Notes: a model not told the origin generated them from the letters alone. 64,000 bases of DNA from Myxococcales bacterium (GCA_031431215.1 JANPCZ010000102.1:23619-87618), one strand, 5' to 3'. Positions 5,496-20,218 are shown, numbered from the stretch's first letter. Translations and numbers: made by a program.

Positions 5496-7551
5496 CTGCG
5501 GCGGGCGCTGCGCCCTGGTTGCGATGCTGTTACCGCTGGCGTGCCATTCTGGCGGCCCGCGTTTCCCGTGGCCGGGCGCTGCCGACAACGTCGCCTTCGA
5601 GCATGCCGAGGTGCGCACTGTGAATGCCGGTTATCGGCGAACCACGTCGCGGGTGCTGGTGCGTGAGATCGATCGTCCGACGCGCGCCACGCTGGACTAC
5701 GCGGCCTACAACGCCAACTTCATGAACGCCGACGCCGAGCCGGAAGATCCGGCCGCGGCCGGGGTCGGCGCGCGGCCAGATGCGAGCCATCCGTTCGCAG
5801 GCGTGTTCGACGCTGCGACTTTGACGGCGTCGATCCGCAAGACGCCGTTGACCCCAGCCGAACGCGCACATCCACTGGCGTTCGCACCGCTGGTGGAGTA
5901 CTTGGCAACCAAGAACGCCGACGCCGCCTCCGGGCTTGAGGATGTCGCCGCGGCCGTGCGCGCCGAGTCCTGGGGCCTGCCCGGTGGCCCCCACATCGCG
6001 CGCCAGTTGGCCGCCCTGGTGTTCCTGCACGATCCGGGCGCGGACGCAGCGGCCGAGGTGTGGGTGAAGGTCGAGCTGTGGCCGTGGTTCAAGGCTTTTC
6101 CTGACGCTCCCGACGAGGACGGCGACGGCTTTCCGGAAGTCTACGGACGCGTGCGCGCCGATCTGATCAAGCCGGCGACGCTCGCTCTCATCCGGGACGA
6201 CTACGTTGGCAAGCCGTTCGGCGCCGCCGAGGTGAAGTCGTGGGCCAACCAGCTGTCGTCGTACTGGTACCCGTCGTACAACACCGATCTGGTGAAGGGC
6301 GCCGTGGTGTGGCCGGACGACGCAACCGAGTCCGAGGTCCGCGGCGAACTGGGCGGACGCACGTTCGACACGCCAGCGGTCGTGATGCGCGGCAAGCCGC
6401 AGGGCAAGCCGGTCTACAACGTCTTTCTGCTCAAGACGCCCGACGGCAAGCCGGCCGTTCGCCCCGCCGGGCCGGCAGCGACGGCGCCCACGCCGAAGCT
6501 CAAGCGCACCACCCCGACGCCGACGCCGGGCCCGGTCGCCGATGTGGTCAGGCGCGAACTTGCGGCCGCGGGTGGTGGATGGGACAAGTGGGCAGCCAGC
6601 GTCGCGCCGTTCGCCGACAGTGTCCGCAAGCGCGAGAAGAGCACGCCCGCGAGTGTGAAGGGGCTGCCCGGGCTCGATGGTTTCCTGTTCTTCCGTAACG
6701 CGCTTGACTACGTGGTCGGCGGCGATCTCGAGCAGCAAAAGCCCGGCAAGGCTCCGCTGCCGCTGATCGTTGAATTTCGCAAGCTGCTGGCCGACAACGG
6801 TGTCGATTTCCTGTTCGTGCCGGTGCCGACCAAGAGCGAAGTTCTGCCCGACAAGTTCGATCCGGCCGGCAAGCCGTTCGTCGGCAAGGTGGTCAACCCA
6901 TTTGCGCGCAAGTTCGCTCTGGCGCTGACCCAGGCCGGCGTCGAGGTGCTGGACCTCCTGCCGGCTTTCCTGGCCGAGCGGGCGAAGGACGCCACCGCGA
7001 AGGAGCCGATCTACCAGGCGCAGGACACCCACTGGAGTGCGCGCGGGATCGATCTCGCCGCCCGGCTGGTCGCCGCCCGGGTCAAGCAATACCCGTGGTA
7101 CCGCGAGCTTGCTAGCCACCCGCGAAAGTACACGGTGTCGGACGCTCCTTTCGTACGCCACGGAGATCTGCACTCGCGCCTGGCGCCCGCATTGCGTGGC
7201 AAGTACAAGCCCGAGACGCTGGTCGGGCATCAGGTGAAGGGCCCCGATGGCGCGCTCTACGAGGATGACGCCGACAGCCCGATCATCGTACTGGGCGACA
7301 GCTTCACCGGCGTGTACCAGTTGACTGACTGCCAACACGCTGGAATCTCGGCGCACATCGCCCGCGAGATTAGCAGCCCCGTGGATCTGGTGATGAGCTA
7401 CGGCGGTGGTCCCAACGTACGGCAGACGCTGATGCGCCGGGGCGTAGCTGATCTCAGCCGCCGCAAGCTGGTCATCTACATGATGACCGCGCGCGATCTG
7501 TACAACTACTCCGAGGGCTGGGATCCGTTGCGGTTGGAAGCCGGCAAGTGA
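5482..7551 (+). CDS. Lipoprotein with a ~400-aa N-terminal domain of unknown function fused to a C-terminal AlgJ/AlgX-like SGNH domain
   Basis: Signal peptide with lipobox 'LLPLACHSG'. C-terminal 'AQDTHWSARG' and 'IIVLGDSFTGVYQ' repeat the AlgJ motifs of the 523–1776 gene. Its start overlaps the GT2 gene stop by 14 nt. Confidence 0.6.
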   Translation: MRVPSCGGRCALVAMLLPLACHSGGPRFPWPGAADNVAFEHAEVRTVNAGYRRTTSRVLVREIDRPTRATLDYAAYNANFMNADAEPEDPAAAGVGARPDASHPFAGVFDAATLTASIRKTPLTPAERAHPLAFAPLVEYLATKNADAASGLEDVAAAVRAESWGLPGGPHIARQLAALVFLHDPGADAAAEVWVKVELWPWFKAFPDAPDEDGDGFPEVYGRVRADLIKPATLALIRDDYVGKPFGAAEVKSWANQLSSYWYPSYNTDLVKGAVVWPDDATESEVRGELGGRTFDTPAVVMRGKPQGKPVYNVFLLKTPDGKPAVRPAGPAATAPTPKLKRTTPTPTPGPVADVVRRELAAAGGGWDKWAASVAPFADSVRKREKSTPASVKGLPGLDGFLFFRNALDYVVGGDLEQQKPGKAPLPLIVEFRKLLADNGVDFLFVPVPTKSEVLPDKFDPAGKPFVGKVVNPFARKFALALTQAGVEVLDLLPAFLAERAKDATAKEPIYQAQDTHWSARGIDLAARLVAARVKQYPWYRELASHPRKYTVSDAPFVRHGDLHSRLAPALRGKYKPETLVGHQVKGPDGALYEDDADSPIIVLGDSFTGVYQLTDCQHAGISAHIAREISSPVDLVMSYGGGPNVRQTLMRRGVADLSRRKLVIYMMTARDLYNYSEGWDPLRLEAGK

Positions 7552-8387
7552 CGGCGGCGCCGCCGCGCTGGCTGGCACTGGCCCTGAGCGGATGCGTCGC
7601 GCTGTCACTGGCGAGTTGCCGGCGGGCCGATGGCGCACGTCCGGCGCGGCCGCGCACGCTTGAGTTGCTGGCTGCCGGTGGCGCCGTCGATCCGGCGGCC
7701 TCGCTGCTGGCTCTCGAGCGGATCGTGTCGCGGGTGCGCGAGGAGCGCAGACAGAAGCCCGTCGACACGATGCTGGCGGTGCTGAACCGTGTGGTCTTCG
7801 AGCACCTGGGATTCGCCCGCGAGATCGATGATCAGGATCCGCGTTTCATGTTGCTGCCGTCAGTGTTGGATCTGCGTCGCGGCAGTTGCGTGGGACTTGG
7901 CACGCTGTACCTGGCGCTCGGCGAGTGGTTGGGTTTGCCGATTGCGGGCGTGGTGGTGCCCGGTCACTTCTTCGTCCGCGTCACCGACGAGGGTGGCGTT
8001 CACAACGTCGAACTACTGCGGGGCGGCGAGGACATGCCCGACGACTTCTATCGCGGCAAATACCATGTGCCGTTGGCGGGCGCGCCCGCGTATCTGCGCC
8101 CGCTGGCACACTCCGAAGTGCTGGGTGTAGTCAGCTACAACCTGGGCAACGATCTGCGTCGGCGCGGGCGCCTGGCGGAGGCGCGGGATGCGTATGCGCG
8201 CGCAACCGCCAGCTTTCCCGCGTTCGCAGAGGCCCATGCGAGCCTGGGCCTGGTCCTGCAACTGCAGGGTGATCTACCGGCGGCCGAGCAAGCCTACGCA
8301 GCGGCACGGGCCGCGAACCCGGACCTGCCGGGGTTGGAACAGAACCTGAAGGTGCTCGAAAAAGAACGGCACGGAGGCGTCGAATGA
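7548..8387 (+). CDS. SirB1/YchA-like lipoprotein: transglutaminase-like core plus C-terminal TPR repeats
   Basis: Lipobox 'LSLASC'. 'RRGSCVGLGTLYLALGEWLGLPIAGVVVPGHFFVRV' gives a Cys...His transglutaminase-like core. The C-terminus has TPR-like helices 'AEAHASLGLVLQLQGDLPAAEQAY'. GTG start overlaps the previous stop. Confidence 0.55.
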   Translation: MTAAPPRWLALALSGCVALSLASCRRADGARPARPRTLELLAAGGAVDPAASLLALERIVSRVREERRQKPVDTMLAVLNRVVFEHLGFAREIDDQDPRFMLLPSVLDLRRGSCVGLGTLYLALGEWLGLPIAGVVVPGHFFVRVTDEGGVHNVELLRGGEDMPDDFYRGKYHVPLAGAPAYLRPLAHSEVLGVVSYNLGNDLRRRGRLAEARDAYARATASFPAFAEAHASLGLVLQLQGDLPAAEQAYAAARAANPDLPGLEQNLKVLEKERHGGVE

Positions 8388-8440
8388 CCTCGAATGAACC
8401 GCTTACTCCGGCCGTCCAACTTCGGATAGTATCCCCCGCC

Positions 8441-8878
8441 ATGACGAAACGCGGTTTTCGACTCGCCGTTCTTTTCGCTGTCCCCGCGGCCGCAATGGCC
8501 ATCGCCAGGCCGACGCCGGCTGTCGCCGACGAGCCCTTGGTGGTGACCGCGAAGCTTGTGGAGATCCCGGGCAAGTTTCCGTCTGACGATCTGTATGACT
8601 ACGCTTTCGTGATGCGCTACGAGGCCGTGGGCGGGCCGATGGCGGGCAAGTCCCTGCTGGTCGCGCACTACAAGCCGCGGCAGCCGCGCAACAAGATCAA
8701 AGACAAGATGAAGGACAAGGTCGGCGGCAAGCTGCGTAGCTTCGTGGTCGGCGATACGCACAAGCTCAAGCTCACCACCGACCTCAAGAAGATCTGGGCG
8801 GGCGCCCTGGTCGATGAGTTCGCCGCCACCGATCGCAAGAGCGTTCGCTACTTCTGTCTGGAAGCGGACCCGGGCTGA
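8441..8878 (+). CDS. Small secreted Lys-rich hypothetical protein (alternative start 8384, coupled to the upstream stop)
   Basis: Signal peptide 'MTKRGFRLAVLFAVPAAAMAIA' and a Lys-rich middle 'PRQPRNKIKDKMKDKVGGK'. No recognisable domain. Confidence 0.45.
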   Translation: MTKRGFRLAVLFAVPAAAMAIARPTPAVADEPLVVTAKLVEIPGKFPSDDLYDYAFVMRYEAVGGPMAGKSLLVAHYKPRQPRNKIKDKMKDKVGGKLRSFVVGDTHKLKLTTDLKKIWAGALVDEFAATDRKSVRYFCLEADPG

Positions 8879-8895
8879 CCCCCGTCGCGCGGTCG

Positions 8896-10848
8896 GTGGG
8901 GTTCTTGCGCGGATGGCCGGTGGCGGTGGTGGCGGTGCTGGCGTTCGGCGCTGGCCTGACCGCGATCGCCGACGGCGACATCTTCTGGCACCTGGCCGCC
9001 GGGCGCGAGATGGTGCGCACGCGGGCATTCTTGCACGTCGATCCGTTCTCGCTTGTCGCAGCGGGGCGGCTCTGGGTCGATCTGCACTGGCTGTTCCAGC
9101 TTGGCGTCTTTGCCGTTCACACGCTTGGCGGCCTCGCCGGGCTCGTGCTGGTGAAGGCGGCAGTGGTAGCCGCCGGGGCCGTAGTGCTCGTGTACGCGGC
9201 AGGGCGCTCAGGCGGGGTTTCGGACGCGTCCGGGGCCGGTCGGATGGCACGCTTGATCTGCACGCTGGCGCTGTCTGCCATGCTGTTTGCCGCCCGCCAC
9301 CTCTTGCCCGTGCGTCCGGTGATCCTGACGTTGGTCTTTCTCGCCGCGTTCTTCTCGATCCTGGAAGACTTCCGTCGCGGTGGCGCCGTGCGTTCATTGT
9401 GGTGGTTGCCACCCCTGCAAATACTGTGGGCGAATTGCCAGGGCCTGTTCGCGCTTGGGCCGGCGCTGATCGGGGCCTTTGTCCTGGGCGCGCTCTTGCC
9501 TTCTGTCGGCGACCGACGCTGGCGGCCGCTGGCCGGCATGCTGGGCCTGTGTTTGCTGGCGTCCCTGGTCACGCCCTACGGCTGGCGCGGGCCGTGGCTG
9601 GCGGTTGAATTGCTGCTGCGCTTCGATCCCTCCAGCGCCAACGTGTACTCGGCGCAGATCGCGGAGAACGTGCCGCCGTGGATCCTCGAACGCTCCATGC
9701 CCGGGCTGTTTTTTCACCTGAAGTGGTTCCTCGGCTTTCTCGCCGCCAGTTTCTTGCTTGGACGCCGCCATCTGATAGCGAGCCACGCGGTGCTGGTGGC
9801 CGCGCTGGTGGCCCTGGCGCTGGTGGCGAATCGCAACGTGATCCTGCTCTACTGGCTCGGCGCACCGATTGGCGCCATCCAGGCGGCCCCGGCTCTGGCG
9901 GTGCTTGAGCGCTGGCTTCGTGAGCGCGGGCGTTCGGTGCGTGTGGCCGTCGGCGCCGTGGTCGCCGTTGCGGTGATCGCGCTGGCTGTGGTCGAGGTGA
10001 AGGCCTTTGCGCGCGAGCCGTCGCTTGCAGCCCCGACGCCGTTTCGCTTCCCGACCGCGTCGGCGGCGGTGCTTGCGACGACCCCGGCGGGTGGCGCGAT
10101 CTTCTCGGCCGATCACCAGGGCGGCTACCTCATCTGGACCCTTTACCCCCGCATCCGGCCTCACATGGACACGCGTCTCATCTTGCGTACCCGCGACGAA
10201 TACCAGGACTTCCTCGATCTGCTTGATCACCCCGAGCGCTTCGATTTCCTGTCGCAGCGGTATCGCTTCACGCACGCGGTGTTGCCGGTCGGCTTTCCGG
10301 GCCGCTACCTGGGCCTCATCGCGCACCTGGCCGGCAGCGCCGACTGGAAGCTGGTGTTCACCGACGGGCAGGAGACCCTGTTCGCCACCCGCGACGCCAC
10401 CGGCCCGGCGGTTGATCTGGCGGACCCCGCCACCACGCAACGCTTGCTCGACGGCTGCGCCGCGCGCTTTCCATCGGTAAGCGATCTGGCCGCGAGCTGT
10501 CGTGTGCAGACCGCCACGCTGCTCGTGGTGACGGGCCACCTCGCCCTGGCCGCGGGCGCTCTGAACGGCTTGCCCGGCGCCGACGCCCAGGTACTGCTTG
10601 CGCGTTGCCACCTGGCGCTGGGCGATGCCGCGGCCGCCGAAACCATCGCCCGTCGCCTGATCGATGGCGATCCCGAAGACACCGACGCGCTCACCCTGCT
10701 GGCCTCGATTGCCCTTGCGCGTGGCGACGGCGCGGGCGCTCTGACTTTCGTGCGGCGCGCGCTGCACATCGATCCGTTCCACGCCGGCGCACAGGCTTTG
10801 CTTGGCGGCATCGAGGTGGCAGCGCGGAACGCGGGGCCTCCCAGGTAG
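8896..10848 (+). CDS. GT-C fold integral-membrane glycosyltransferase (ArnT/PMT_2-like) fused to C-terminal TPR repeats (TMTC-like architecture)
   Basis: About 10–12 predicted TM helices. First extracytoplasmic loop 'DGDIFWHLAAGREM' matches the ArnT loop signature 'DETRYAEISREM' (D-x-aromatic-x-x-aliphatic-A/S-x-x-REM). C-terminal ~150 aa of TPR-like helices ('ARCHLALGDAAAAETIARRLIDGDPEDTDALTLLASIALARGD'). GTG start. Confidence 0.6.
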   Translation: MGFLRGWPVAVVAVLAFGAGLTAIADGDIFWHLAAGREMVRTRAFLHVDPFSLVAAGRLWVDLHWLFQLGVFAVHTLGGLAGLVLVKAAVVAAGAVVLVYAAGRSGGVSDASGAGRMARLICTLALSAMLFAARHLLPVRPVILTLVFLAAFFSILEDFRRGGAVRSLWWLPPLQILWANCQGLFALGPALIGAFVLGALLPSVGDRRWRPLAGMLGLCLLASLVTPYGWRGPWLAVELLLRFDPSSANVYSAQIAENVPPWILERSMPGLFFHLKWFLGFLAASFLLGRRHLIASHAVLVAALVALALVANRNVILLYWLGAPIGAIQAAPALAVLERWLRERGRSVRVAVGAVVAVAVIALAVVEVKAFAREPSLAAPTPFRFPTASAAVLATTPAGGAIFSADHQGGYLIWTLYPRIRPHMDTRLILRTRDEYQDFLDLLDHPERFDFLSQRYRFTHAVLPVGFPGRYLGLIAHLAGSADWKLVFTDGQETLFATRDATGPAVDLADPATTQRLLDGCAARFPSVSDLAASCRVQTATLLVVTGHLALAAGALNGLPGADAQVLLARCHLALGDAAAAETIARRLIDGDPEDTDALTLLASIALARGDGAGALTFVRRALHIDPFHAGAQALLGGIEVAARNAGPPR

Positions 10849-10926
10849 CGGCGATTGGTGGCGCCTGCCTAGTTGCTCGTCGACGTGAACCGTCTCGCAG
10901 GGTGGCCTGCTATTCTTACCGCCGTG

Positions 10927-11181
10927 ATGAAACGTCTAGTCATGTCCCTGATAGCCGCCTTGGTTTTCGCCGCATTTGCCGTCCCCGCGACGGAGTCAGT
11001 CGCACACGCCCGGCCTGGAGTGTGCGCGGCGAAGAAAGGCGTTCGAAAGTCCAAGGCCAAGAAGAACCAGCGCCACGCCAAACCCCGGGGCAAGAAAGCG
11101 CAGGGCAAGGGCGACGGCACCGGCTCCGCCGAGGATGTTGGCAGCGGTCGGCCCAAGGGTTCGAAGGGCCTGCAACTCTGA
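10927..11181 (+). CDS. Small Lys-rich secreted hypothetical protein (alternative start 10873)
   Basis: Signal peptide 'MKRLVMSLIAALVFAAFAVPA' then a very basic segment 'KKGVRKSKAKKNQRHAKPRGKKAQGK'. No homology recognised. It lies in a 350-bp gap between convergent genes. Confidence 0.3.
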   Translation: MKRLVMSLIAALVFAAFAVPATESVAHARPGVCAAKKGVRKSKAKKNQRHAKPRGKKAQGKGDGTGSAEDVGSGRPKGSKGLQL

Positions 11182-11205
11182 ACCCAGGGTTGCCCGGCGC
11201 TGGCC

Positions 11206-12396
11206 CTACGGCGCTGGATAGAGACGGTTGCGCGGGATCACCTGTCGCGGCTGGCTCGGGCTCTCCCAGGTGAGGGCGACGTTCGCGTTTAGGGCCCCCT
11301 CCCGCATCTCCACCCTTATCGGGTAGCGACGTCCGGCCTCGAGGGGCACCATGGCGGTCCTGGTCCCCACCCCGCCTGAAAACCGATCGATCAGCAGGGC
11401 GCCATTCCACCACAGGCTGCTGCCGTCGTCGGAACTCAAGCTGATTGTGTAGTTCTCGGTGAACGGCGCCTCGACTTCGCCGGTCCAGCGCACGGTGAAG
11501 AAATCGGCCGGCACGCCAGGCGCGGGTGCGCCATTCTTCCAGTCGAAATTGACCGTCGGATCGATGCGAACCACCGTGGCCGGCGGGGTCAGCGTCGTGT
11601 TGCTGAAATACTCCCCCTTGAGACCGGTCCCCTGCGGCGCATCGACGGGCGCATCGACGGGCGCATCGACGGGGCTGACGTCGATGGCGCGATCGGGCGA
11701 CACATCGGGCGGCGGTGCATCGACGCGGGTGTCCGCCGCCGGTGGGGCGTCCGCCGCCGTGCCCTTGACCTCGACCGGGGCTCCATCGACCACCGGGGAA
11801 GTGACAGGCCCGCTGTCGATCGGACCTCCGCCCCCGTCCGGGGATTGAGGTCCGGTGTCGGCCATCGACCCCCGGCATGCACCGGTCGGGTCCTTGATGC
11901 TGGGACAGTTGTCGACCTCGTCCGGAATGCCGTCGTCATCCAGATCGGTGCCGCGCTGTGCGCGCAAGGTCACGGTCACTGTCTGTCGCACGGACGGCGA
12001 GGGGATGCGCGAGGGGATGCGGCTGGCACCCTCGGCCACCGCAACGGCGTCGCGCATTCCCCGCACCACGATCCGACGCTCACCGGGAAGCGACGCATCG
12101 GTTTCGATAATGATCGTGGCCAGAGTCGGACCCCGGCTCGCGAGTTCGCCCTGGTCAGGGACTCGGCGATCCAGGAACACCGCACCCTGTTCGTGAAACC
12201 AGCTCACCACAAGGTGGGACGGCCGGGGCACGTCGGGCTCGATCTCGAACCGAATCTCAAGGTTTCCAAATCGGGCGGGATCGCCGCAGGAAGGCCACCA
12301 AAACAAAGCGGCCGCGAGCCACGCCGCGAAACCCGTGCAAGGCCCGGATCCATTTCGCGGTCGTCTCCTTGGCTGCCCTCGAACGGCCACTCCCAT
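11206..12396 (-). CDS. Secreted protein with thrombospondin type-3-like Ca-binding repeats and a C-terminal PA14 domain
   Basis: 'DDDGIPDEVDNCPSIKDPTG' (TSP3-like) and 'GLKGEYFSNTTL...FFTVRWTGEVEAPFTENYTISLSSDDGSSLWWNG' (PA14). A Pro-rich linker contains a tandem 'VDAP' repeat. Start chosen at ATG 12396, because the 5' part of the track ORF overlaps the upstream gene and is low-complexity. Confidence 0.55.
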   Translation of the reverse strand: MGVAVRGQPRRRPRNGSGPCTGFAAWLAAALFWWPSCGDPARFGNLEIRFEIEPDVPRPSHLVVSWFHEQGAVFLDRRVPDQGELASRGPTLATIIIETDASLPGERRIVVRGMRDAVAVAEGASRIPSRIPSPSVRQTVTVTLRAQRGTDLDDDGIPDEVDNCPSIKDPTGACRGSMADTGPQSPDGGGGPIDSGPVTSPVVDGAPVEVKGTAADAPPAADTRVDAPPPDVSPDRAIDVSPVDAPVDAPVDAPQGTGLKGEYFSNTTLTPPATVVRIDPTVNFDWKNGAPAPGVPADFFTVRWTGEVEAPFTENYTISLSSDDGSSLWWNGALLIDRFSGGVGTRTAMVPLEAGRRYPIRVEMREGALNANVALTWESPSQPRQVIPRNRLYPAP

Positions 12397-12529
12397 CCAC
12401 AAACTATACGTCTTCTCCGAGCAAGCGCGCGCGAGGTCAATCCAGCAGCCTTGGCTCGCGCAGCACCAGCACCGAGCGGAGCCACTGCCGTGCGACGCAC
12501 GCGCGGGATGTCCCGGGGGCACTAGAGTA

Positions 12530-13825
12530 CTAGAGCCCGCGAATCCAGGCCGACACCAGGTCCACGCCCACCATGTCGACGTGCTTGGTCGCCAAGGGCG
12601 GCATGGCACTGTTGGTGCCTCGCTCGCGCATGCGGTAGATGACGCCGCTCTGGTCGGGACTGGCACGGACGATCCGGTCCGATACGACGGCGTTGCGAAA
12701 CCGCTGCAGCATGACTCCGATGGTCGTGCGATAGGCACCGGTGGCCTCGGGCACGCGATCGGAGGTGCCGATGCGCAGGAGCATGTCGGTGTCGGGCCGC
12801 GCGATGCCGGTGGGGTTGTGACAGTGGCCGCAGTTGGCGTGCAGGTACCCGATCGCCGTGCGCACGGCGCCCTCGCCGGGAACGCGGTAATCGGCATCCG
12901 GCGGTGGCGGTGCAGTCAACAGACCCGCGGCCACGAGCGAACTCAGGGTGGCCGACGTGCCCGCGGGACGCGACAGCTGCACGGCCGAGAATCCCAGCAG
13001 GCGGCCGGGCTCGCCGCTGTGGCATGACCAGCAGCGTTTCGCTGCCGGTACGTCGTGATCGGTGCCCAGGACGTTGGTCGCTCCGTCGGGTACGTAGACC
13101 GCGTCCGAGCCGTCCGCCTTCCATAGGAAGGCCCCCATCCAGTAGTCCATCTCGCCCGGTCCGGTGCGCTCGACCAGCCGGGTCTCTAGCGGCTTGCCGT
13201 CGCGGCTGAACTCTTTCCACGCTCGCGTGCCGACCGGGAAAGTCCAATGGTCCATGTTCGACGTGTCGATCTTTTCGCCCGGTGGCAACTGCAACCAACG
13301 CCGCTTGGTGGCACCGTCGGCCCACAGCACGTGCTCGGGGGCGAACGGAATCAGATCGGCAGCAAGCAGCTTCTTCGCCATGTCCGAGTAGAGCCCCGCC
13401 TCGGACAGCAAGTACGGGCCGGCGCCGTCGGGTGTCGGCTTGCGCTGGATCGCATCTGGCGCCGCCTCGGAGGCCGCGTCCTTGGTGTCGGCCGGCTGCG
13501 CGTCCATAGGTGGCAATTCGTCGGCGGGCACGTCAGGCGCCGAAAGGCCGGGCGCGTCCCCGGCTTCGGGTGCAGGCTGGCGCATATCCGTCAGGTCGCT
13601 TGGGTCGGCACCGGCGGTTTCCGGGAGGCTGGCCGGGGCATCCGGGGTGGGCTGTCCGGGCCTGTCGCCAACCACCGCGGCAGCGTCGGTATCGACCACG
13701 GGCGGGTCGATGGGTCCGTTGGCTCCCGGATCGCCGCAGCCAAAAACGAAAACGAGCGGCGCGAGCACAAAGGCTCGCGTCGCTCGTGGGGTGGGGTGTG
13801 CGGCTGTCACGCGCACCACGGGCAA
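12530..13825 (-). CDS. Lipoprotein with two CxxCH haem-binding motifs (putative dihaem c-type cytochrome-domain protein)
   Basis: Lipobox 'VFVFGCGD'. 'KRCWSCHSGE' and 'HANCGHCHNP'. The track start is TTG; the real start is probably one of the GTGs at 13808–13819. Confidence 0.6.
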   Translation of the reverse strand: MPVVRVTAAHPTPRATRAFVLAPLVFVFGCGDPGANGPIDPPVVDTDAAAVVGDRPGQPTPDAPASLPETAGADPSDLTDMRQPAPEAGDAPGLSAPDVPADELPPMDAQPADTKDAASEAAPDAIQRKPTPDGAGPYLLSEAGLYSDMAKKLLAADLIPFAPEHVLWADGATKRRWLQLPPGEKIDTSNMDHWTFPVGTRAWKEFSRDGKPLETRLVERTGPGEMDYWMGAFLWKADGSDAVYVPDGATNVLGTDHDVPAAKRCWSCHSGEPGRLLGFSAVQLSRPAGTSATLSSLVAAGLLTAPPPPDADYRVPGEGAVRTAIGYLHANCGHCHNPTGIARPDTDMLLRIGTSDRVPEATGAYRTTIGVMLQRFRNAVVSDRIVRASPDQSGVIYRMRERGTNSAMPPLATKHVDMVGVDLVSAWIRGL

Positions 13826-13838
13826 GGGCTTGCCGACC

Positions 13839-15122
13839 TTATGGGGCCACGCACTGGTTGGGCAGCATGTTCATCTTGCCCGGAAGGGTGACGATGAAAT
13901 TGGCGATGTCCTGAGCGTCGGCGTCCGTGAGGCCACCGAAGTTGCCCATCGGCCCGGCCGGCATCGGCGGGCAGACCTTCTTGTCCATCTTGTCGAGGCC
14001 CATCTTCAGCACCTTGATCACGTCATTGGCGACCCAGCCCTTGATGCCGGTGTCGTCCTGGGTGAGGTTCTGCGTGTAGATCTTGGCTGGGAACGGCGGC
14101 ACCGGCAGGCCGAAGCCGGCGGCGTCGAACTCGCGTGCACCGGCGAAATACAAGGTCTTGTCGAGCGGGTGCGGCGATCCCATGGCGGCGTCCTTGGTGT
14201 GGCAGCCGATGCAGGCCACTGCGGCGATGTAGCGCCCGCGCTTGGCGGAAGCTTCGTTGGCCGCGCCCGCGGCGACGTCAGGCACGTCCGTCAGAGCGAC
14301 CGCCACGGCCGCCGCGGCCGGCGGATCGGTGAACGGTGGCTCGTTGGGCGGCACCATGTTGTCGACCGCCGGGATGGTCCGCAGGTAAGCGACCACTGCA
14401 TCGGCGTCGTCGGAGGTCAGGTTCGCGTACTCGTAGTACGGCATGAACGAGTGCATCGGCTTGCCGTCGGGCCGCATGCCCTTGGTGAACATGTCCTTGA
14501 TCTGGGTGTCGGTGCGCGTCTTGAGTCCGTTTTCGTGCGGAGTCAGGTTGCGGCTGTTCACGCAGCCCATGCCGTTGGTCGCGGGCGGAATGATGTCGAA
14601 CAGGCATTTCACGCCGGACAAGAACTTCGTCATGTCGGGAGCGCCCATCGCGCCGCGAGGGGTGTGGCAATCACCGCAGCTCAGCAGGGTGTTCACCAGG
14701 TAAGAACCGCGCGCTGCCGGGCCGGTCAAGGCCACGACGTCAGTCGACGCGTCGGTGGCCACAGCGTCAGTACCAGTCTCGGCCCTGGCAGCATCGCTGG
14801 CGTCGGTGCCAGTCTCGCCGCGGGCGGCGTCGGTACCGCCCTCGCTGCGGCTGGCATCGCTGGGCGTGCCCATCTCGGCCGCCACGTCGGCAGGAGAGGT
14901 ATCGGGCCGTCCCGCATCCATGCCGGCAGAACCACCGCCAGCACTACCCGCCACGCCACCGCCATCCGAACCCGCGCGACCGGCACCGCCACCGGCACCG
15001 CCCTTGGTGCCGCCGTCGTCTACCATCACCATCGGACCGTCCTTCTTGCTGTCGCCATCGTCATCGCAGGCCGCCAGAAGCGATGAAACCGAGAACAGTA
15101 CCGCCAGAGCTCGTGTGCGCAT
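13839..15122 (-). CDS. Dihaem c-type cytochrome lipoprotein (two class-I-like cytochrome c domains)
   Basis: Lipobox 'SLLAACDD'. 'LLSCGDCHTP' and 'AVACIGCHTKD' CxxCH motifs. Good SD 'aagggggaa' 7 nt upstream of the ATG. A Gly/Ser/Asp-rich linker follows the signal peptide. Confidence 0.65.
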   Translation of the reverse strand: MRTRALAVLFSVSSLLAACDDDGDSKKDGPMVMVDDGGTKGGAGGGAGRAGSDGGGVAGSAGGGSAGMDAGRPDTSPADVAAEMGTPSDASRSEGGTDAARGETGTDASDAARAETGTDAVATDASTDVVALTGPAARGSYLVNTLLSCGDCHTPRGAMGAPDMTKFLSGVKCLFDIIPPATNGMGCVNSRNLTPHENGLKTRTDTQIKDMFTKGMRPDGKPMHSFMPYYEYANLTSDDADAVVAYLRTIPAVDNMVPPNEPPFTDPPAAAAVAVALTDVPDVAAGAANEASAKRGRYIAAVACIGCHTKDAAMGSPHPLDKTLYFAGAREFDAAGFGLPVPPFPAKIYTQNLTQDDTGIKGWVANDVIKVLKMGLDKMDKKVCPPMPAGPMGNFGGLTDADAQDIANFIVTLPGKMNMLPNQCVAP

Positions 15123-15373
15123 GGATCTGATTCCCCCTTGTTGGCGCGCATATTAACCATCGTTTCGACGAAGGGAAGCAGAATTTTCTCGGGCTAACCT
15201 CGGTACCCCCAGCGCGATCGCCCGGCTCGGGGCGCGCCCCTGACGGCGGTTGGCACGATGCCTGCGACGATGTTTCTGGCTGATGTCAACGTCCACATGA
15301 CGGCCACCCTGGCCACGGGCCCGCTGGTCGCGGACATTCGCCAAGTAGCAGCGCGATCCGGGTCGCCGGTCGG

Positions 15374-17566
15374 CTAACGGCGCCGGCGGCGCGACCGGGC
15401 GTGCACCACGACCGCGAAGGTCAACCACAGGCCTGCTAGCGCTCCGCCGGCCAGCGCGCCTCTGCCACCCACCCCGCACGAGCAACCGCCACCCTGGGTC
15501 GCGATTTCGATCCGTTCAGCCTGGCATTCCTTGAGTAGCCCGCAGAAGCCGGTGCCGTCGGTGGCGACATCGCACTTGTAGCAGCCGTTGGGGCACTTGA
15601 TGGTGGCGCACGGATCGTCCTTGCACTCGCCGGTCGCCGGGACGCAGCGTTGTCCAGCTGAGCACGCGCCAAACCTGCACCGGTCGGCCTTGCACGTGAG
15701 GGTGACCGGATCGCAGACCTCACCCGCAATGCAGGTGGCGGTGACCGGGGCGCACTTGTCGACCTGGCATGTGCCGGCGGCGCAGCGCTGGCCGGGCGGG
15801 CACGGCGAGGTGCACAGGTTGGTGCACACGCCTTTCTCGTTGCAGAACTGGTCAGGTTTGCATTTCTTGCCCGCGCACGGGTCCTTCTGGCACAGTCCGG
15901 CCCGGCACTGCTGACCGGCCGGACAGCCAAGCGAGTAGCAGTCGACGCAGCGACCGTCCAAGCAGGTCTGCGGCGCAACGCAGGTGACGTTGGCGCATTT
16001 GTCCTTGCACTCGCCGGTACCTTCCTCGCACGACGACCCCGCCGGGCAGACCTTGCCAACGCACTTCAAGCTCTTGCACACGGGTGGCATCATCGAGGTG
16101 TCACAGGCGTAGCCGGTCGGACAGCGGAATTCGCCCTCACCGCACAGCAATTCGCACTTGCACCCGACACACGCGAAGCCGGCGCCGCACGGGTTGCCTT
16201 CGTCCTTCATGCCGTTGCAGTTGTTGTCCTTGCAGTCGCAGATCTCCTTGACAGGGCCGACGCAGCCTTCGCAGTCGAGCGGCATCTTGCCTTTGCACAC
16301 GTTCTTGCCCGCCCGACACTCTCCGGTGTTCAGCATTTCGAGCGATAGGGGCGGGCACGCGCATTCTTTGCCGACGTTAGGCAGGTTCTCGTCGATGAGG
16401 CCGTTGCAATTGTCGTCGATGCCATTGCACACCTCCTCGCCCGGGCCGACGCAGCCTTCGCACACCAGTGCACCCGCGACGCACTTGAGGTTGCCTTTCT
16501 TGCACATGCCCTTACCGACCATCTCTTCGGTCAGGCCAGGGCACAGGCAGGGACCGCCCACGTCGGGCAGCGGGCCATCGATGCCCTTCATGTTGTCGAT
16601 GTCGCCGTTGCAATTGTCGTCCTTGCCGTTGCAGATCTCCCCCGGCGGCACCGACTCGGCGATGATGCCGATGAGCGCGGCCTTGGTCGCCGCCGGGTTG
16701 AGAAAGTCCACCTTCAGTGACGCCGGGCGCTTGCCGCCGCTGCCCCGGCTGGCGATCTGGTCGTGCACGGTCCCGACCTCACCCAGTTGCACGACGACGT
16801 ACAGTTCGACACCCGCCTTGTACAGATCCTCGGCGGCCTGGGGTGCGTCGCCGCCGCAGGTCTCCGCGCCGTCGGTGACCAGAATGACGATGTCCTTGCG
16901 GCAGCCCATGCGCGGATCATTGGGTTTGACGTAGCGCTGGAAGTACAGCCGGGCATAAAACAAGGACGCCGCCAGCGGCGTCTTTGGGCCGCCCACGCGG
17001 ATCTCGGGCTCAGTCATGGTGACACCGTCCGAGATCTCCACGTTGTTCAGCCAGCGGTGAATGGTGACCACGTTGGCGCCGGGTGGATCGTAGTCGTTGC
17101 TGTCGGGTGGCGGCAGCTTGCCTGTGACCGGCACGACCACAAACTCCGAGGCGATGTCCGGCAGGAACCACGCGCCGTCGGGCGCCTCAATGGCCGCTGT
17201 GGTCTTGCAGCCGAGGTTGGCGCCGGTGTCGATGGCGTTGATGTAGTGGCCCCGGTAGCAACCGCGGTCGGTCGCTGGCGTGGTTCGCTGCGGGAAGCGC
17301 GCAAGACCGAAGTTGGCCTCATCGGTGCCGACCTCCGTCAGTGTCTCGCGGATGGCTTGCTTGAGGCGGAAGAACCGCGAGTTCATGCCCTGGTTCATGC
17401 ATAGGGGCGAGCCGTCGCCGCCGTTGAGCAGCATCGACGTCGAGGTGTCGAAGATGAACAGGATGTTGGGCCGCACCGGCTGGGCGCCGGCCGTGCGTGC
17501 GAAGAGCAATCCGGCCGCGACCAGGCCAGCGGTGGCGACGAGGTTGACGATGTTTCTTCTACGCAT
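15374..17566 (-). CDS. Secreted von Willebrand factor A (MIDAS) domain protein with myxobacterial Cys-rich repeats and a MYXO-CTERM sorting tag
   Basis: Signal peptide. 'NILFIFDTSTSM' is a DxSxS MIDAS motif. Many EGF-like Cys repeats including 'CNGKDDNCNGDIDN' and 'CNGIDDNCNGLIDE'. C-terminal 'GGGCSCGVGG...LWLTFAVVVHARSRRRRR' matches MYXO-CTERM. Confidence 0.7.
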   Translation of the reverse strand: MRRRNIVNLVATAGLVAAGLLFARTAGAQPVRPNILFIFDTSTSMLLNGGDGSPLCMNQGMNSRFFRLKQAIRETLTEVGTDEANFGLARFPQRTTPATDRGCYRGHYINAIDTGANLGCKTTAAIEAPDGAWFLPDIASEFVVVPVTGKLPPPDSNDYDPPGANVVTIHRWLNNVEISDGVTMTEPEIRVGGPKTPLAASLFYARLYFQRYVKPNDPRMGCRKDIVILVTDGAETCGGDAPQAAEDLYKAGVELYVVVQLGEVGTVHDQIASRGSGGKRPASLKVDFLNPAATKAALIGIIAESVPPGEICNGKDDNCNGDIDNMKGIDGPLPDVGGPCLCPGLTEEMVGKGMCKKGNLKCVAGALVCEGCVGPGEEVCNGIDDNCNGLIDENLPNVGKECACPPLSLEMLNTGECRAGKNVCKGKMPLDCEGCVGPVKEICDCKDNNCNGMKDEGNPCGAGFACVGCKCELLCGEGEFRCPTGYACDTSMMPPVCKSLKCVGKVCPAGSSCEEGTGECKDKCANVTCVAPQTCLDGRCVDCYSLGCPAGQQCRAGLCQKDPCAGKKCKPDQFCNEKGVCTNLCTSPCPPGQRCAAGTCQVDKCAPVTATCIAGEVCDPVTLTCKADRCRFGACSAGQRCVPATGECKDDPCATIKCPNGCYKCDVATDGTGFCGLLKECQAERIEIATQGGGCSCGVGGRGALAGGALAGLWLTFAVVVHARSRRRRR

Positions 17567-17578
17567 GATGACGGCTCC

Positions 17579-18985
17579 TCACTGAGCGGGTAGTTTGCCG
17601 GTGCGGCAGCAGCGGAATCCGACCGACGGCAGGCGGACCGCTGCCATCGGCGCCGGGATGGCGGCCGTGCACTTGAGGCCGGGCGCGTCGCCGCTGAAGC
17701 TGGCGATGTTGTAGGCGCCGCCACGCATCTCGAACGCCGAGGCGGCGGTGGTGGTGACCCATTCGCGCACGTTGCCCGAGAGATCATAGATGCGGGTCTC
17801 GCCGGGGGGCGCGCCCGCCTCCGACGCGCACATGGTCGCGCTGCCGGTGGCGACGACGCTGGGAGGCATCTTGAAATCCACGCCGTTGCACTTCATGCCG
17901 TCGTAGCTGGCGCCGTAGGGATACGGGTTGACCGTCACGCTGCCCCGGCTACACGCTTTCTCCCACTCGATGCTTGAGCACAGGCGCCACATCGTGCCGA
18001 CGGCCTCGCAAGCTTTGGCAGCGTCCTTCCTGTCGATGTTGGTCCACGGCATGCGCGACGGCAACGAGCACGCGCGCACCGTGCCGTTTGAACCTGGGGC
18101 CTTGTCGGTCGAGTCGGGCCGCGCGCTCTCGTACGCGAACATGGTCACGTCGGCTACCTGAACGTAGACGAGCTTGTCGTCCGTGGTGCGGTCAGCCTCG
18201 GAGTTGATCTCGTCGATCTTGCCGTCGCAGTCGTTGTCCCGGCCGTCGCAGATCTCGACGCCGCCGTTGGTTTCGGCGCAGTTCGATTCGCAGCCGTCGC
18301 CCGGAATCTTGTTGCGGTCGGCGAAGCCAGGCAAGCACATCTTGAGCGTGCACATGCCGCCCTCGCAGCCGGCGTCGGCACCGGGCAGCGTGCATTTGTT
18401 GCCGCACTTGCCACAGTTGTTCGCATCTTTTGCCAGGTCGAAGGCTTCGTCGATCCTGCCGTCGCAGTTGTTGTCCTTACCGTCGCACAGCTCCTGACCG
18501 GTGAACTGGCACTCGCAGCCATCTTCCTTGCTGCCGTTCACGTCTCGGAAGCTTGGATCCTTGCACGTGAAGCCGCACACACCCGCCACGCACACCGATT
18601 CGGCGTTGGGCGGCACCGGCAGGCAGGTGATGTCACACCGGCCGCACGAGGTGACCTTGTCCTGTAGGTCGCTTGCCACCACGTCGTCGACGATACCGTT
18701 GCAGTCGTCGTCGAGGCCGTTGCAGATCTCACGGGCTATCCTGATGCAGGCGTCGGGCCGCGCAACCGCGTCGGGCAGTACCAGGATGGGGCCGGTGTCG
18801 GGCGGCGCTGGCGGGGCATCGGCGCCTGCCTCGGGCGGGCCCTTGGGGATGTCGATTTCCAGGTGGCGCGGGCTGCAGGCCGCGGCGGTGCAGATCGACA
18901 GGCACGCGGCGAAGAAAGGCTTTGACAGCAGTCTCCTCCTGGCCTGCTGCGGTACGGTCCGTTCTGTCATGGTGCGATGGTCCAA
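17579..18985 (-). CDS. Lipoprotein with three 'CxGxDxDCDGxxDE' myxobacterial Cys-rich metal-binding-type repeats and a C-terminal FGE-sulfatase (SUMF1/FGS) domain
   Basis: Lipobox 'LSICTAAACS'. Repeats 'ICNGLDDDCNGIVDD', 'LCDGKDNNCDGRIDE', 'ICDGRDNDCDGKIDE'. C-terminal 'YDLSGNVREWV...RGGAYN' is typical of the FGE-sulfatase fold. 12-nt gap to the downstream vWA gene. Confidence 0.7.
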   Translation of the reverse strand: MDHRTMTERTVPQQARRRLLSKPFFAACLSICTAAACSPRHLEIDIPKGPPEAGADAPPAPPDTGPILVLPDAVARPDACIRIAREICNGLDDDCNGIVDDVVASDLQDKVTSCGRCDITCLPVPPNAESVCVAGVCGFTCKDPSFRDVNGSKEDGCECQFTGQELCDGKDNNCDGRIDEAFDLAKDANNCGKCGNKCTLPGADAGCEGGMCTLKMCLPGFADRNKIPGDGCESNCAETNGGVEICDGRDNDCDGKIDEINSEADRTTDDKLVYVQVADVTMFAYESARPDSTDKAPGSNGTVRACSLPSRMPWTNIDRKDAAKACEAVGTMWRLCSSIEWEKACSRGSVTVNPYPYGASYDGMKCNGVDFKMPPSVVATGSATMCASEAGAPPGETRIYDLSGNVREWVTTTAASAFEMRGGAYNIASFSGDAPGLKCTAAIPAPMAAVRLPSVGFRCCRTGKLPAQ

Positions 18986-19162
18986 TGCGAGTTCTCGCAG
19001 CTACCATATACCTCCCTGCCCTCCACAAACCAGGGCGCTTTCGCGCCGGGGTTCCGGGCTTGAGGCACACACGAACTTCGTGCCCGGAGCGTCTCGAGCG
19101 GAAGCCGACATCACCGAACTCGACCCCGGGCGGGCTTGACTCCGGCTGGTCTCCGTAGGCCA

Positions 19163-20218
19163 ATGGCGCCAAGCTCGATGGAATCGCTCAGCATCCGGGA
19201 TCCGCGCCAGGGCGACGTGCCGGCGTTCTTGCGCCCGGCTGCGGCGCTGCTTGGTGATGCGCGCGATCTGGTGTTCGTCTGGCTAATGCTGAAGTGCGCC
19301 CTGGTGGGGATCGCGGGCGTGGCGCTGTTCTTCGCCGGGCCGCACCTTTGGTACCTGGCGCCGCTCTACTGGCTTCTACTCGGTGCGTGGACCATGGACC
19401 GGTTCATCCTGATGCTCCACTGCACGTCGCACCGGCCCTTGTTCAAGGCGCGCCACCGGGCGCTCGCGACCATCATCCCGTGGGTGCTTGGGCCGTTCCA
19501 TGGCGAGACGCCCGAGACCTATTTCGTCCACCACATGGGCATGCATCATCGCGAAGAGAACCTCGGGGACGATCTCAGCTCGACCATGGGCTACCACCGC
19601 GATCGCTTGTCGCACTGGCTGCACTACTGGTTGCGCTTCATGGTCTTGGGGCTGTGGCAGCTTGCCGGGTACCACCGACGGAAGGGCAACACGCGTCTGC
19701 TGCGACGCCTGATCATTGGCGAGGGCGCGTTCTGGCTGGTGGTGGCCGGGCTGTTGCTGGTGAACCCGGCGGCGACCTTGGTGGTGTTCGTCGGCCCCGT
19801 GGTGCTGGTGCGCACCTTGATGATGGCGGGCAACTGGGGCCAACACGCCTTCGTATGCGCGCAGCAACCTGGGAATCCCTACCGCTCCAGCATCACGTGC
19901 ATCAACACCCGCTACAACCGCCGCTGCTTCAACGACGGCTACCACATCCACCATCACGTGCAGGCGCGCTGCCACTACACCGAGCTGCCTGCCGAGCTCG
20001 AGCGCAATCTGGCGCGCTACGGTGCCGAGGACGCTCTCGTGTTCGACGGCCTCGACTTCTTCCAGGTGTGGCTCCTCTTGATGCTCAAGCGCTGGCGGCG
20101 GCTGGCCCGCGCCGTGGTGCAGCTGCCGGGTGCGCCGGCGCGGGACGAGAGCGAGATGATCGCGTTCCTCAAGCAGCGGACGCAGCCGATCGAGCCAACG
20201 TCCGCTCGGGCGGTGTAG
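19163..20218 (+). CDS. Membrane fatty-acid desaturase family protein
   Basis: Three His boxes, 'HCTSH', 'HHMGMHH' and 'HIHHH', separated by TM segments. The track ORF starts at a TTG at 19136; the first ATG is 19163. Confidence 0.7.
   Translation: MAPSSMESLSIRDPRQGDVPAFLRPAAALLGDARDLVFVWLMLKCALVGIAGVALFFAGPHLWYLAPLYWLLLGAWTMDRFILMLHCTSHRPLFKARHRALATIIPWVLGPFHGETPETYFVHHMGMHHREENLGDDLSSTMGYHRDRLSHWLHYWLRFMVLGLWQLAGYHRRKGNTRLLRRLIIGEGAFWLVVAGLLLVNPAATLVVFVGPVVLVRTLMMAGNWGQHAFVCAQQPGNPYRSSITCINTRYNRRCFNDGYHIHHHVQARCHYTELPAELERNLARYGAEDALVFDGLDFFQVWLLLMLKRWRRLARAVVQLPGAPARDESEMIAFLKQRTQPIEPTSARAV

Follow-up and report, generated by a model that had tools for sequence, protein, structure and literature searches.

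What two neighbouring myxobacterial genes do, and whether they do it together, is the question raised by positions 15374-18985 of a 64,000-nucleotide stretch of DNA from a Myxococcales bacterium (GCA_031431215.1, JANPCZ010000102.1:23619-87618; the whole stretch is called the window here, and positions are counted from its first letter). The upstream gene, which we call A, encodes a lipoprotein that ends in a domain with the fold of the formylglycine-generating enzyme (FGE), and the downstream gene, B, encodes a protein with a von Willebrand factor A (vWA) domain and a C-terminal tag of the MYXO-CTERM type; both proteins carry Cys-rich repeats of the MopE kind. Having examined the domains of the two proteins, their linkage in relatives and their fusion in other species, we find that the balance of our judgement tips modestly towards A and B being two subunits of one lipid-anchored receptor or adhesin of the cell envelope, most likely at the cell surface. 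The locus comprises:

17579-18985, minus strand: gene A, lipoprotein with MopE repeats and a C-terminal FGE fold, 468 amino acids (aa) from TTG
17567-17578, minus strand: spacer GGAGCCGTCATC, 12 nucleotides (nt), from the A stop to the B ATG
15374-17566, minus strand: gene B, signal peptide, vWA head bearing a MIDAS (metal-ion-dependent adhesion site), Cys-rich stalk and MYXO-CTERM tag, 730 aa, 68 Cys

An open reading frame (ORF) call on the window returned both frames and the 12-nt gap exactly where the preliminary description of this DNA, made from the sequence alone, had placed them, and the 251-bp intergenic region that it had drawn between B and the cytochrome c genes (15123-15373) is likewise correct. 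Inside the spacer GGAGCCGTCATC lies a Shine-Dalgarno motif (GGAG), 8 nt ahead of the B ATG, and a spacer of only 12 nt makes co-transcription of A and B plausible. The longest ORF for A begins with TTG at 18985, and the NCBI call (P0001, 463 aa; MTERTVPQQ...) begins with ATG at 18970; the signal peptide and lipobox are intact with either start. A scan for promoters and terminators found sites no more commonly than in shuffled sequences, and zero within the intergenic regions.

The N-terminal part of B consists of:

17483-17566, minus strand: Sec signal peptide of B, residues 1-28, ...TAGA/QPVRPN
16637-17482, minus strand: divergent vWA domain of B, residues 29-310, with a complete MIDAS

Judged by its predicted structure, the head of B is a divergent vWA subfamily. 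The AlphaFold2 (AF2) model of the domain (predicted local distance difference test score, pLDDT, 83; predicted TM-score, pTM, 0.88) matched the I domains of integrins alpha1, alpha2 and alphaM, mussel PTMP1, collagen VI and factor B with a Foldseek probability of 1.0. The MIDAS residues are all present in the window protein (D40-x-S42-x-S44; T197 in TPLAASL; D232 in VTDG), so that fold match and metal site together uphold the MIDAS-type vWA domain first proposed for B. Among 120 homologues of B the DxSxS motif is kept in 118, and the MIDAS Thr (TPLGRSL) and Asp (VTDG) occupy columns with little or no variation. The mature N-terminus of B is beta-strand 1 of the domain (AQxLRPNILxxFDTSGSM family-wide), and about 90 aa of Cys-braced insertions distinguish the domain from integrin I domains. 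The vWA profile PF00092 stays below its gathering score (18.5 bits with the full protein and 22.3 bits with the domain alone vs 23.8) and matches at E<0.01 in just 6 of 20 family members; a search of full-length B against PDB sequences returned noise alone (top match, CaM kinase, E 0.28). The subfamily is modest in size, with 25 clusters (50% identity) at E ≤ 1e-30 and 291 at E ≤ 1e-10 among 1.84 billion representatives.

Behind the head, B continues as follows:

16157-16636, minus strand: three MopE-motif Cys modules of ~65 aa, motifs at residues 312, 380 and 443
15500-16156, minus strand: membrane-proximal stalk, ~10 short CPxGxxCxxGxC-type modules without a MopE motif, residues ~471-689
15377-15499, minus strand: MYXO-CTERM-type tag, GGGCSC, transmembrane helix ALAGGALAGLWLTFAVVV, RSRRRRR tail

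Pfam family PF11617 (Cu-binding_MopE) matches B in three stretches at 29.6 bits (gathering score 27). The preliminary description had counted more than ten modules with the repeat shared by A, a number that has to be reduced: only three (residues 312-456) have CxGxDDxCxGxxDE, the ~10 others being of the CPxGxxCxxGxC type. The tail of B has the three-part form of a MYXO-CTERM tag, with GGGCSCGVGG, an 18-residue hydrophobic helix (ALAGGALAGLWLTFAVVV) and RSRRRRR in succession, a form seen also in 112-118 of the 120 homologues. A hidden Markov model (HMM) built from 101 homologue tags, with the window protein left out, gave the tail of the window protein 23.1 bits (E 1e-6) and found 0 matches among 240 controls (120 family-A proteins and 120 reversed decoys); form and HMM thus agree with the tag assigned to B at the outset. 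The MYXO-CTERM pathway has been described (PMC11980579).

Protein A is built from three parts:

18875-18985, minus strand: lipoprotein signal peptide, RRR n-region, hydrophobic core and lipobox TAAA-C37, assigned by sequence pattern only
18200-18724, minus strand: stalk, three ~79-aa Cys modules with PF11617 motifs CNGLDDDCNGIVDD, CDGKDNNCDGRIDE and CDGRDNDCDGKIDE
17582-18199, minus strand: FGE-sulfatase / C-type-lectin-fold head, residues 263-468

In an alignment of 37 family sequences Cys37 of the lipobox never varies, most homologues having [AS]G-C, and A is in all probability a bacterial lipoprotein anchored at its N-terminus. PF11617 matches three stretches of A (46.7 bits, E 3.7e-12), and each stalk module joins the PF11617 motif to an NCGxCxxxC beta-hairpin unit behind it (AF2 pLDDT ~85-94). 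The head matches PF03781 (FGE-sulfatase) at 39.9 bits vs a cut-off of 23.3 and contains YDLSGNVREWV at residues 400-410, RGGAYN at residues 421-426 and the conserved C-terminus APGLxC..PAP..VRLPSVGFRCC; its AF2 model matched human and bacterial FGE, ToxD and EgtB with a Foldseek probability of 1.0. Pfam, the lipobox alignment and AF2 therefore concur with the original picture of A as a lipoprotein with three Cys repeats and a C-terminal FGE fold. Lower in the same Foldseek list stand TaqVP and Mtd, ligand-binding variable proteins of diversity-generating retroelements (DGRs); A itself was rejected as a DGR target, its C-terminus being strongly conserved. Among A orthologues the loop after RGGAY, the place at which FGE binds its substrate, is of variable length in the family alignment.

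The Pfam name of the motif that A and B share, together with a pair of cytochrome c genes downstream, could point to a system for the capture of copper or calcium akin to MopE/CorA of methanotrophs. We consider this very improbable, in that PF11617 spans a mere 14-30-residue motif that is reportedly unspecific for MopE/CorA (PMC6189053), the Asp-rich, disulfide-braced motif looks more like a calcium-binding structural repeat, and the cytochrome genes are not conserved beside the pair in relatives. What A and B have in common with MopE/CorA is the short CxDxxDNDCDGxxDE motif (PF11617); identity with these copper proteins was rejected, as we found no similarity to the copper-binding domain of MopE and no MopE among the PDB matches.

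A catalytic FGE head would give the locus a different meaning, that of sulfatase maturation. In human FGE the catalytic copper-binding Cys pair, C336 and C341, falls within ten residues of the end of RGGSY. Over the corresponding ten positions behind RGG[AS]Y, 0 of 117 members of the A family carry a Cys, as judged by a pattern anchored on the human FGE segment; this pattern was used because a PDB profile alignment to true FGEs ended before the catalytic segment. The single Cys at +14 and the cysteines of GFRCC match structural disulfide positions, and the top PDB sequence match of A is the non-catalytic SUMF2/pFGE. The strict sulfatase motif C[TSAC]P[SA]R (CxPxR) is absent from 120 A and 120 B family members, and no sulfatase genes were seen among the neighbours in the window and in the relatives' loci examined. 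A genuine FGE or sulfatase-maturation role for A was rejected on the absence of the catalytic Cys pair and of the CxPxR substrate motif, in keeping with the earlier suggestion that the head is non-catalytic.

A wider version of the enzymatic idea is that A serves B as a maturation, folding or modification factor, for example as an FGE/EgtB-type oxidase or a chaperone acting on the cysteines of B or on some other residue. The FGE fold is best known from the oxidases FGE, EgtB and OvsA, and a low-GC metagenome-assembled genome (MAG) labelled Bdellovibrio sp. (L031, 694-8091; also L030) indicates that oxidative folding matters, since there the FGE and vWA/MopE genes flank genes for a possible beta-barrel, a rhodanese, a MauE/DoxX protein and a DsbA-like thioredoxin. 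These intervening genes look like a dedicated disulfide-forming set, and the rhodanese, MauE/DoxX and DsbA-like genes fit a need for dedicated disulfide formation; in L031 the FGE lipoprotein has two FGE domains and no MopE repeats, and the vWA protein ends ...SSSSCSCNLIE with neither a transmembrane helix nor an Arg tail. We nonetheless regard a maturation factor as decidedly unlikely. Besides the Cys pair missing from all 117 members, the lack of CxPxR in either protein and a non-catalytic protein, SUMF2, as the closest sequence match, A is without an EgtB-like DinB/iron-binding domain (Pfam), and an enzyme would hardly be expected to need a long rigid stalk matching that of its substrate, or a 1:1 fusion to that substrate.

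Weak matches of A to GldK/PorK (27.7 bits) and of the B vWA domain to CglB (26.2 bits) bring up yet another reading, with A as a PorK/GldK-like ring lipoprotein and B as the cargo or adhesin of a secretion or gliding machine. Both scores fall far under the respective cut-offs of 350 bits (TIGR03525) and 200 bits (NF033757), and the matches cover the generic fold core alone, which in B is the TPLG..VTDG core; no PorL/M/N, type IX secretion system (T9SS), Glt or other machine genes recur in the neighbourhoods examined. We rejected the PorK/GldK T9SS lipoprotein family for A and the CglB family for B, and find a place for the pair in such a machine hard to credit.

The evidence that the two genes belong together comes from their relatives. 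Both A and B have hundreds of full-length homologues, nearly all in metagenome bins of uncultured Polyangia or "Myxococcales". In every relative contig looked up, the FGE gene is followed after 12-15 nt by the vWA gene, and the flanks are unrelated. We then drew on a census of species, a scan with the vWA-domain profile over one genome per species that yielded at least 77 loci and whose frequencies are those of a sample. Among the loci listed, 19 of 22 close orthologues have the FGE domain on the same strand as the vWA domain and ending ~100 nt upstream of it; one of the other three lies at a contig end, and two are paralogues that follow another Cys-rich MYXO-CTERM gene. Contig look-ups and census combined, the order FGE-then-vWA occurs in the window and at the loci of 23 distinct relatives. 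Relatives further away (24-31% identity; Bradymonadia, Polyangiales, Haliangiales and others) still have an adjoining FGE gene, often downstream; in L043 (9177/9174), L056 and L032 the two genes have swapped places, and the stop codon of one overlaps the start codon of the other. The pair is thus conserved as neighbours, and is reversed or fused in distant clades. Of the two findings that the preliminary description had named as fatal to its reading, loss of this adjacency in relatives and a full catalytic Cys pair in the FGE-like domain, neither was obtained. No third gene recurs beside the pair or the fusion in the neighbourhoods examined.

The surroundings of the pair differ between clades. 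In the main long-stalk clade (L001, L002, L004, L018) it sits in an icd-mdh-sucC-sucD-ndk-[A][B]-rlmN block, and the retention of this block suggests that the two genes are passed down vertically there, as a pair belonging to the core of the lineage. In the short-stalk clade of the window, the pair is located elsewhere than in this housekeeping block, and the contexts of the closest relatives are quite different.

The stalks of the partners are matched. MopE motifs number 3+3 in the window clade and 6+4 in the main clade, and 7-13 go with 5-12 in distant or fused forms. Over 30 pairs, which are phylogenetically non-independent, the partners co-vary in motif count (Spearman rho 0.83) and in stalk length (rho 0.69).

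In some relatives, a single open frame carries both proteins. The fusion loci are:

L065, 5242-10632: fusion of the vWA and FGE proteins
L051, 5932-12654: fusion of the vWA and FGE proteins
L029, ~6000-10308: fusion of the vWA and FGE proteins
L047, ~5770-12531: fusion of the vWA and FGE proteins
L084, 8001-14618: fusion protein P0274

The order within the fused frame is signal peptide, vWA domain, stalk, GGC.C tag with helix and Arg cluster, hydrophobic stretch with lipobox, MopE modules and FGE domain, and an example junction reads ...GGGGCACDAAG...LLLLGLIGWRRRRQLGG...LSLLLLPAQGCEVDPFC.... Among the 120 best database matches to the L065 fusion, 65 have a MIDAS, the internal hairpin and an FGE domain, and the tag HMM found an internal tag in 85 of these 120 proteins. 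P0274 is a 2,205-aa protein of the cultured Sandaracinus amylolyticus, and since it is encoded on a complete chromosome (10.75 Mb; CP070225.1, 933201-939818), the fusion is no artefact of metagenome assembly. The neighbours of the fused gene are unrelated in two genomes, indicating that no third component recurs with it. As genomic evidence for the two proteins acting jointly and in equal amounts, in-frame hairpin fusions are unusually strong.

These observations bear on the alternative that A and B are independent surface or periplasmic proteins that share repeats and a promoter, their adjacency having arisen from co-regulation or from the duplication and shuffling of Cys-repeat genes. MopE-repeat proteins are indeed very numerous in these genomes (>1,200 matches), and some vWA paralogues come without an FGE gene. 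Independence is unlikely in our view, given that the linkage outlasts complete turnover of the flanks and a reversal of gene order, that it recurs with overlapping stop/start codons and, in at least 65 gene calls, as in-frame fusion, and that the stalk lengths of the partners co-vary.

In the doubly lipid-anchored receptor that we favour, B would leave the cytoplasm via Sec, with its MYXO-CTERM helix retaining it in the inner membrane; by a processing route that we infer by analogy with TraA, it would become an N-terminal vWA head, with a metal ion in the MIDAS, on a disulfide-rich stalk anchored at the C-terminus. This polarity of MIDAS head, Cys-rich leg and C-terminal anchor would resemble that of an integrin beta subunit. 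A would have the mirror polarity, with its anchor at the N-terminal Cys, then a MopE-type stalk and a lectin-like non-catalytic head. Equal amounts of the subunits are expected because the genes form a 12-nt coupled operon here and an in-frame fusion in other species. The matched stalks would set the two heads side by side, and these would make contact with one another or else together take hold of an external ligand via the MIDAS metal and the lectin-like surface. The notion of a two-component recognition or adhesion module, already put forward in the preliminary description, gains from the conserved linkage and the non-catalytic FGE fold; adhesion, exposure of A at the surface and contact between the heads are parts that we infer from architecture and linkage.

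Several points weigh against the receptor reading. Those three parts could be otherwise: A could face the periplasm with B on the surface. Two vWA paralogues (L022, 3134-5935; L035, 3332-5902) are preceded by another MYXO-CTERM protein and have no FGE gene, and cultured Polyangium spp. (L042, L055, L071) have two tandem vWA/MopE/MYXO-CTERM paralogues (~1,300-1,500 aa and at least 860 aa), an FGE domain being absent over 6 kb around them; from these unpaired cases, the vWA subunit can exist without an FGE partner. The correlation of the stalks, uncorrected for kinship, could also stem from recombination between the shared repeats, and the census counts, as said, describe a sample. NCBIfam TIGR03901, the profile for the tag, gave no match to the window B, its 53-aa tail included (cut-off 20 bits); it was passed by five of six B homologues tested (21.4-26.8 bits), the remaining one scoring 19.2. 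Finally, among genetically studied models, M. xanthus for example, we found no homologue.

The fusions also allow a proposal about the form of the module, which we advance tentatively and think somewhat less likely than its opposite. The ancestral or an alternative form may be a self-splitting polyprotein with a helical hairpin in the inner membrane and two lipidated cysteines, cut by myxosortase and signal peptidase II. In its topology, such a hairpin would be compatible with both signals, the MYXO-CTERM helix ending in the cytoplasm and its Arg cluster appearing to double as the n-region of the lipoprotein signal peptide that follows. The MYXO-CTERM helix would run out-to-in, the Arg cluster would be cytoplasmic and the lipoprotein signal peptide would run in-to-out, and the polyprotein would be lipidated on the periplasmic side at two cysteines, one on each flank of the hairpin. 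Cleavage by the two enzymes would then yield oppositely anchored subunits of an integrin-like heterodimer that had been exported together, and the window would hold a split, order-swapped version of the polyprotein.

Downstream of the pair, the window has three minus-strand genes (11206-~12340, 12530-13825 and 13839-15122), which encode a dihaem-type cytochrome c, a second dihaem cytochrome c of the SO2930 family and a protein that has a PA14 domain and a TSP3-like DLDDDGIPDEVDNCP motif. In the relatives' loci examined, neither the cytochrome c genes nor the PA14 gene are kept beside the pair, and a functional link of the pair to the cytochrome c genes was rejected on that ground. Upstream and divergent lies a fatty-acid desaturase gene (19136-20218, plus strand). 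The relative L006 (50-66% identical) has a desaturase too, downstream of the pair and convergent with it (6618-7610, minus strand); L005 is without a desaturase beside the pair.

Some further members of these families deserve mention. The gene before the unpaired L022 and L035 paralogues encodes a MYXO-CTERM protein of ~860-930 aa with 86 Cys, its head without a match to the vWA query; L022 is a second copy within a MAG that holds the canonical pair in L014. A related vWA subfamily (L049, L057, L058, L068, L053, L067) consists of lipoproteins of ~530-660 aa without MopE repeats, often in tandem pairs; the subfamily has a conserved C-terminus, ...DLKNxKxCG, and may be closer to CglB-type adhesins. 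Public names within these Cys-repeat families (e.g., P0231, P0339) include 'Tryptophan synthase alpha chain', 'Notch 1' and 'SUMF1/EgtB/PvdO family nonheme iron enzyme', which are misleading for non-catalytic surface proteins.

How does the pair compare with systems already known? CglD, a gliding adhesin of M. xanthus, has been likened to a beta-integrin, its Cys-rich stalk being EGF-like (bioRxiv 10.1101/2023.10.19.562135). Like B, CglD is a myxobacterial lipid-anchored surface protein with a MIDAS vWA domain, an EGF-like Cys-rich stalk and Asp-rich repeats of the calcium type, and it is proposed to bind the substratum. Unlike B, it is anchored by an N-terminal lipobox, has its vWA domain in the C-terminal half, contains a COMP/TSP3 domain and acts together with the Glt machine, whereas B has an N-terminal head, a MYXO-CTERM anchor and a dedicated partner of the FGE fold; we found no match between them at the level of sequence families. 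CglB, the vWA gliding adhesin of M. xanthus (PMC9946355), resembles B as a Cys-rich myxobacterial adhesin with a vWA/MIDAS domain and is the sole NCBIfam match to the B head, but it is an N-terminal lipoprotein of ~400 aa that has neither stalk nor MYXO-CTERM tag and depends on the GltABHCK module.

TraA/TraB of M. xanthus (PMC3325183, PMC11980579), the outer-membrane-exchange receptor in cell-surface recognition, shares with the pair a head, a Cys-rich stalk, a MYXO-CTERM tag and a two-gene operon. TraA has a PA14-like variable domain for its head, and its partner TraB contains an OmpA domain, in contrast to the vWA/MIDAS head described here and its FGE-fold lipoprotein partner with a stalk of its own; on these differences in head and partner, identity with a TraA-type kin-recognition receptor was rejected. 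The heterodimeric integrins offer a further parallel, with a vWA/MIDAS head, a Cys-rich EGF-like leg, an anchor, a short basic tail and a second subunit matched in leg length; of all solved folds, integrin I domains come nearest to the B head. The anchors here are lipid, however, and the partner head is of the FGE/C-type-lectin fold rather than a beta-propeller, so that the resemblance is one of analogy, with homology limited to the vWA fold. For A, the nearest comparisons are SUMF2/pFGE, PorK/GldK, PvdO and the DGR variable proteins, which likewise use an FGE/C-type-lectin fold without the catalytic Cys pair for binding or scaffolding, but have no MopE stalk and no coupling to a vWA protein.

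Every domain of the pair is thus already known; an integrin-like vWA adhesin on a Cys-rich stalk has precedent in CglB and CglD, and the layout of head, Cys stalk, MYXO-CTERM tag and operon partner has precedent in TraA/TraB. What appears to be undescribed is a vWA subfamily paired with a non-catalytic FGE-fold lipoprotein, with matched stalks and a hairpin polyprotein form; in the literature searched on MYXO-CTERM, vWA, FGE-sulfatase and PF11617/MopE proteins in myxobacteria, neither the pair nor an internal MYXO-CTERM tag is described.

If the polyprotein proposal is true, the fusions would be natural reporters of the lipidation step of the MYXO-CTERM pathway, for which Lgt has been proposed. 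By placing a MYXO-CTERM Cys and a lipobox Cys on one substrate, the fusion could make the lipidation enzyme approachable in Sandaracinus amylolyticus. When they prey, glide or recognise kin, myxobacteria and their relatives rely on receptors at the cell surface, and the few that are understood (TraA, CglB, CglD) all come from Myxococcus. The pair described here would be a self-contained receptor module conserved in the Polyangia, Sandaracinaceae, Nannocystaceae and Bradymonadia, groups that are largely uncultured, and its matched stalks would carry two different heads, one with an integrin-type MIDAS and one of the lectin type.

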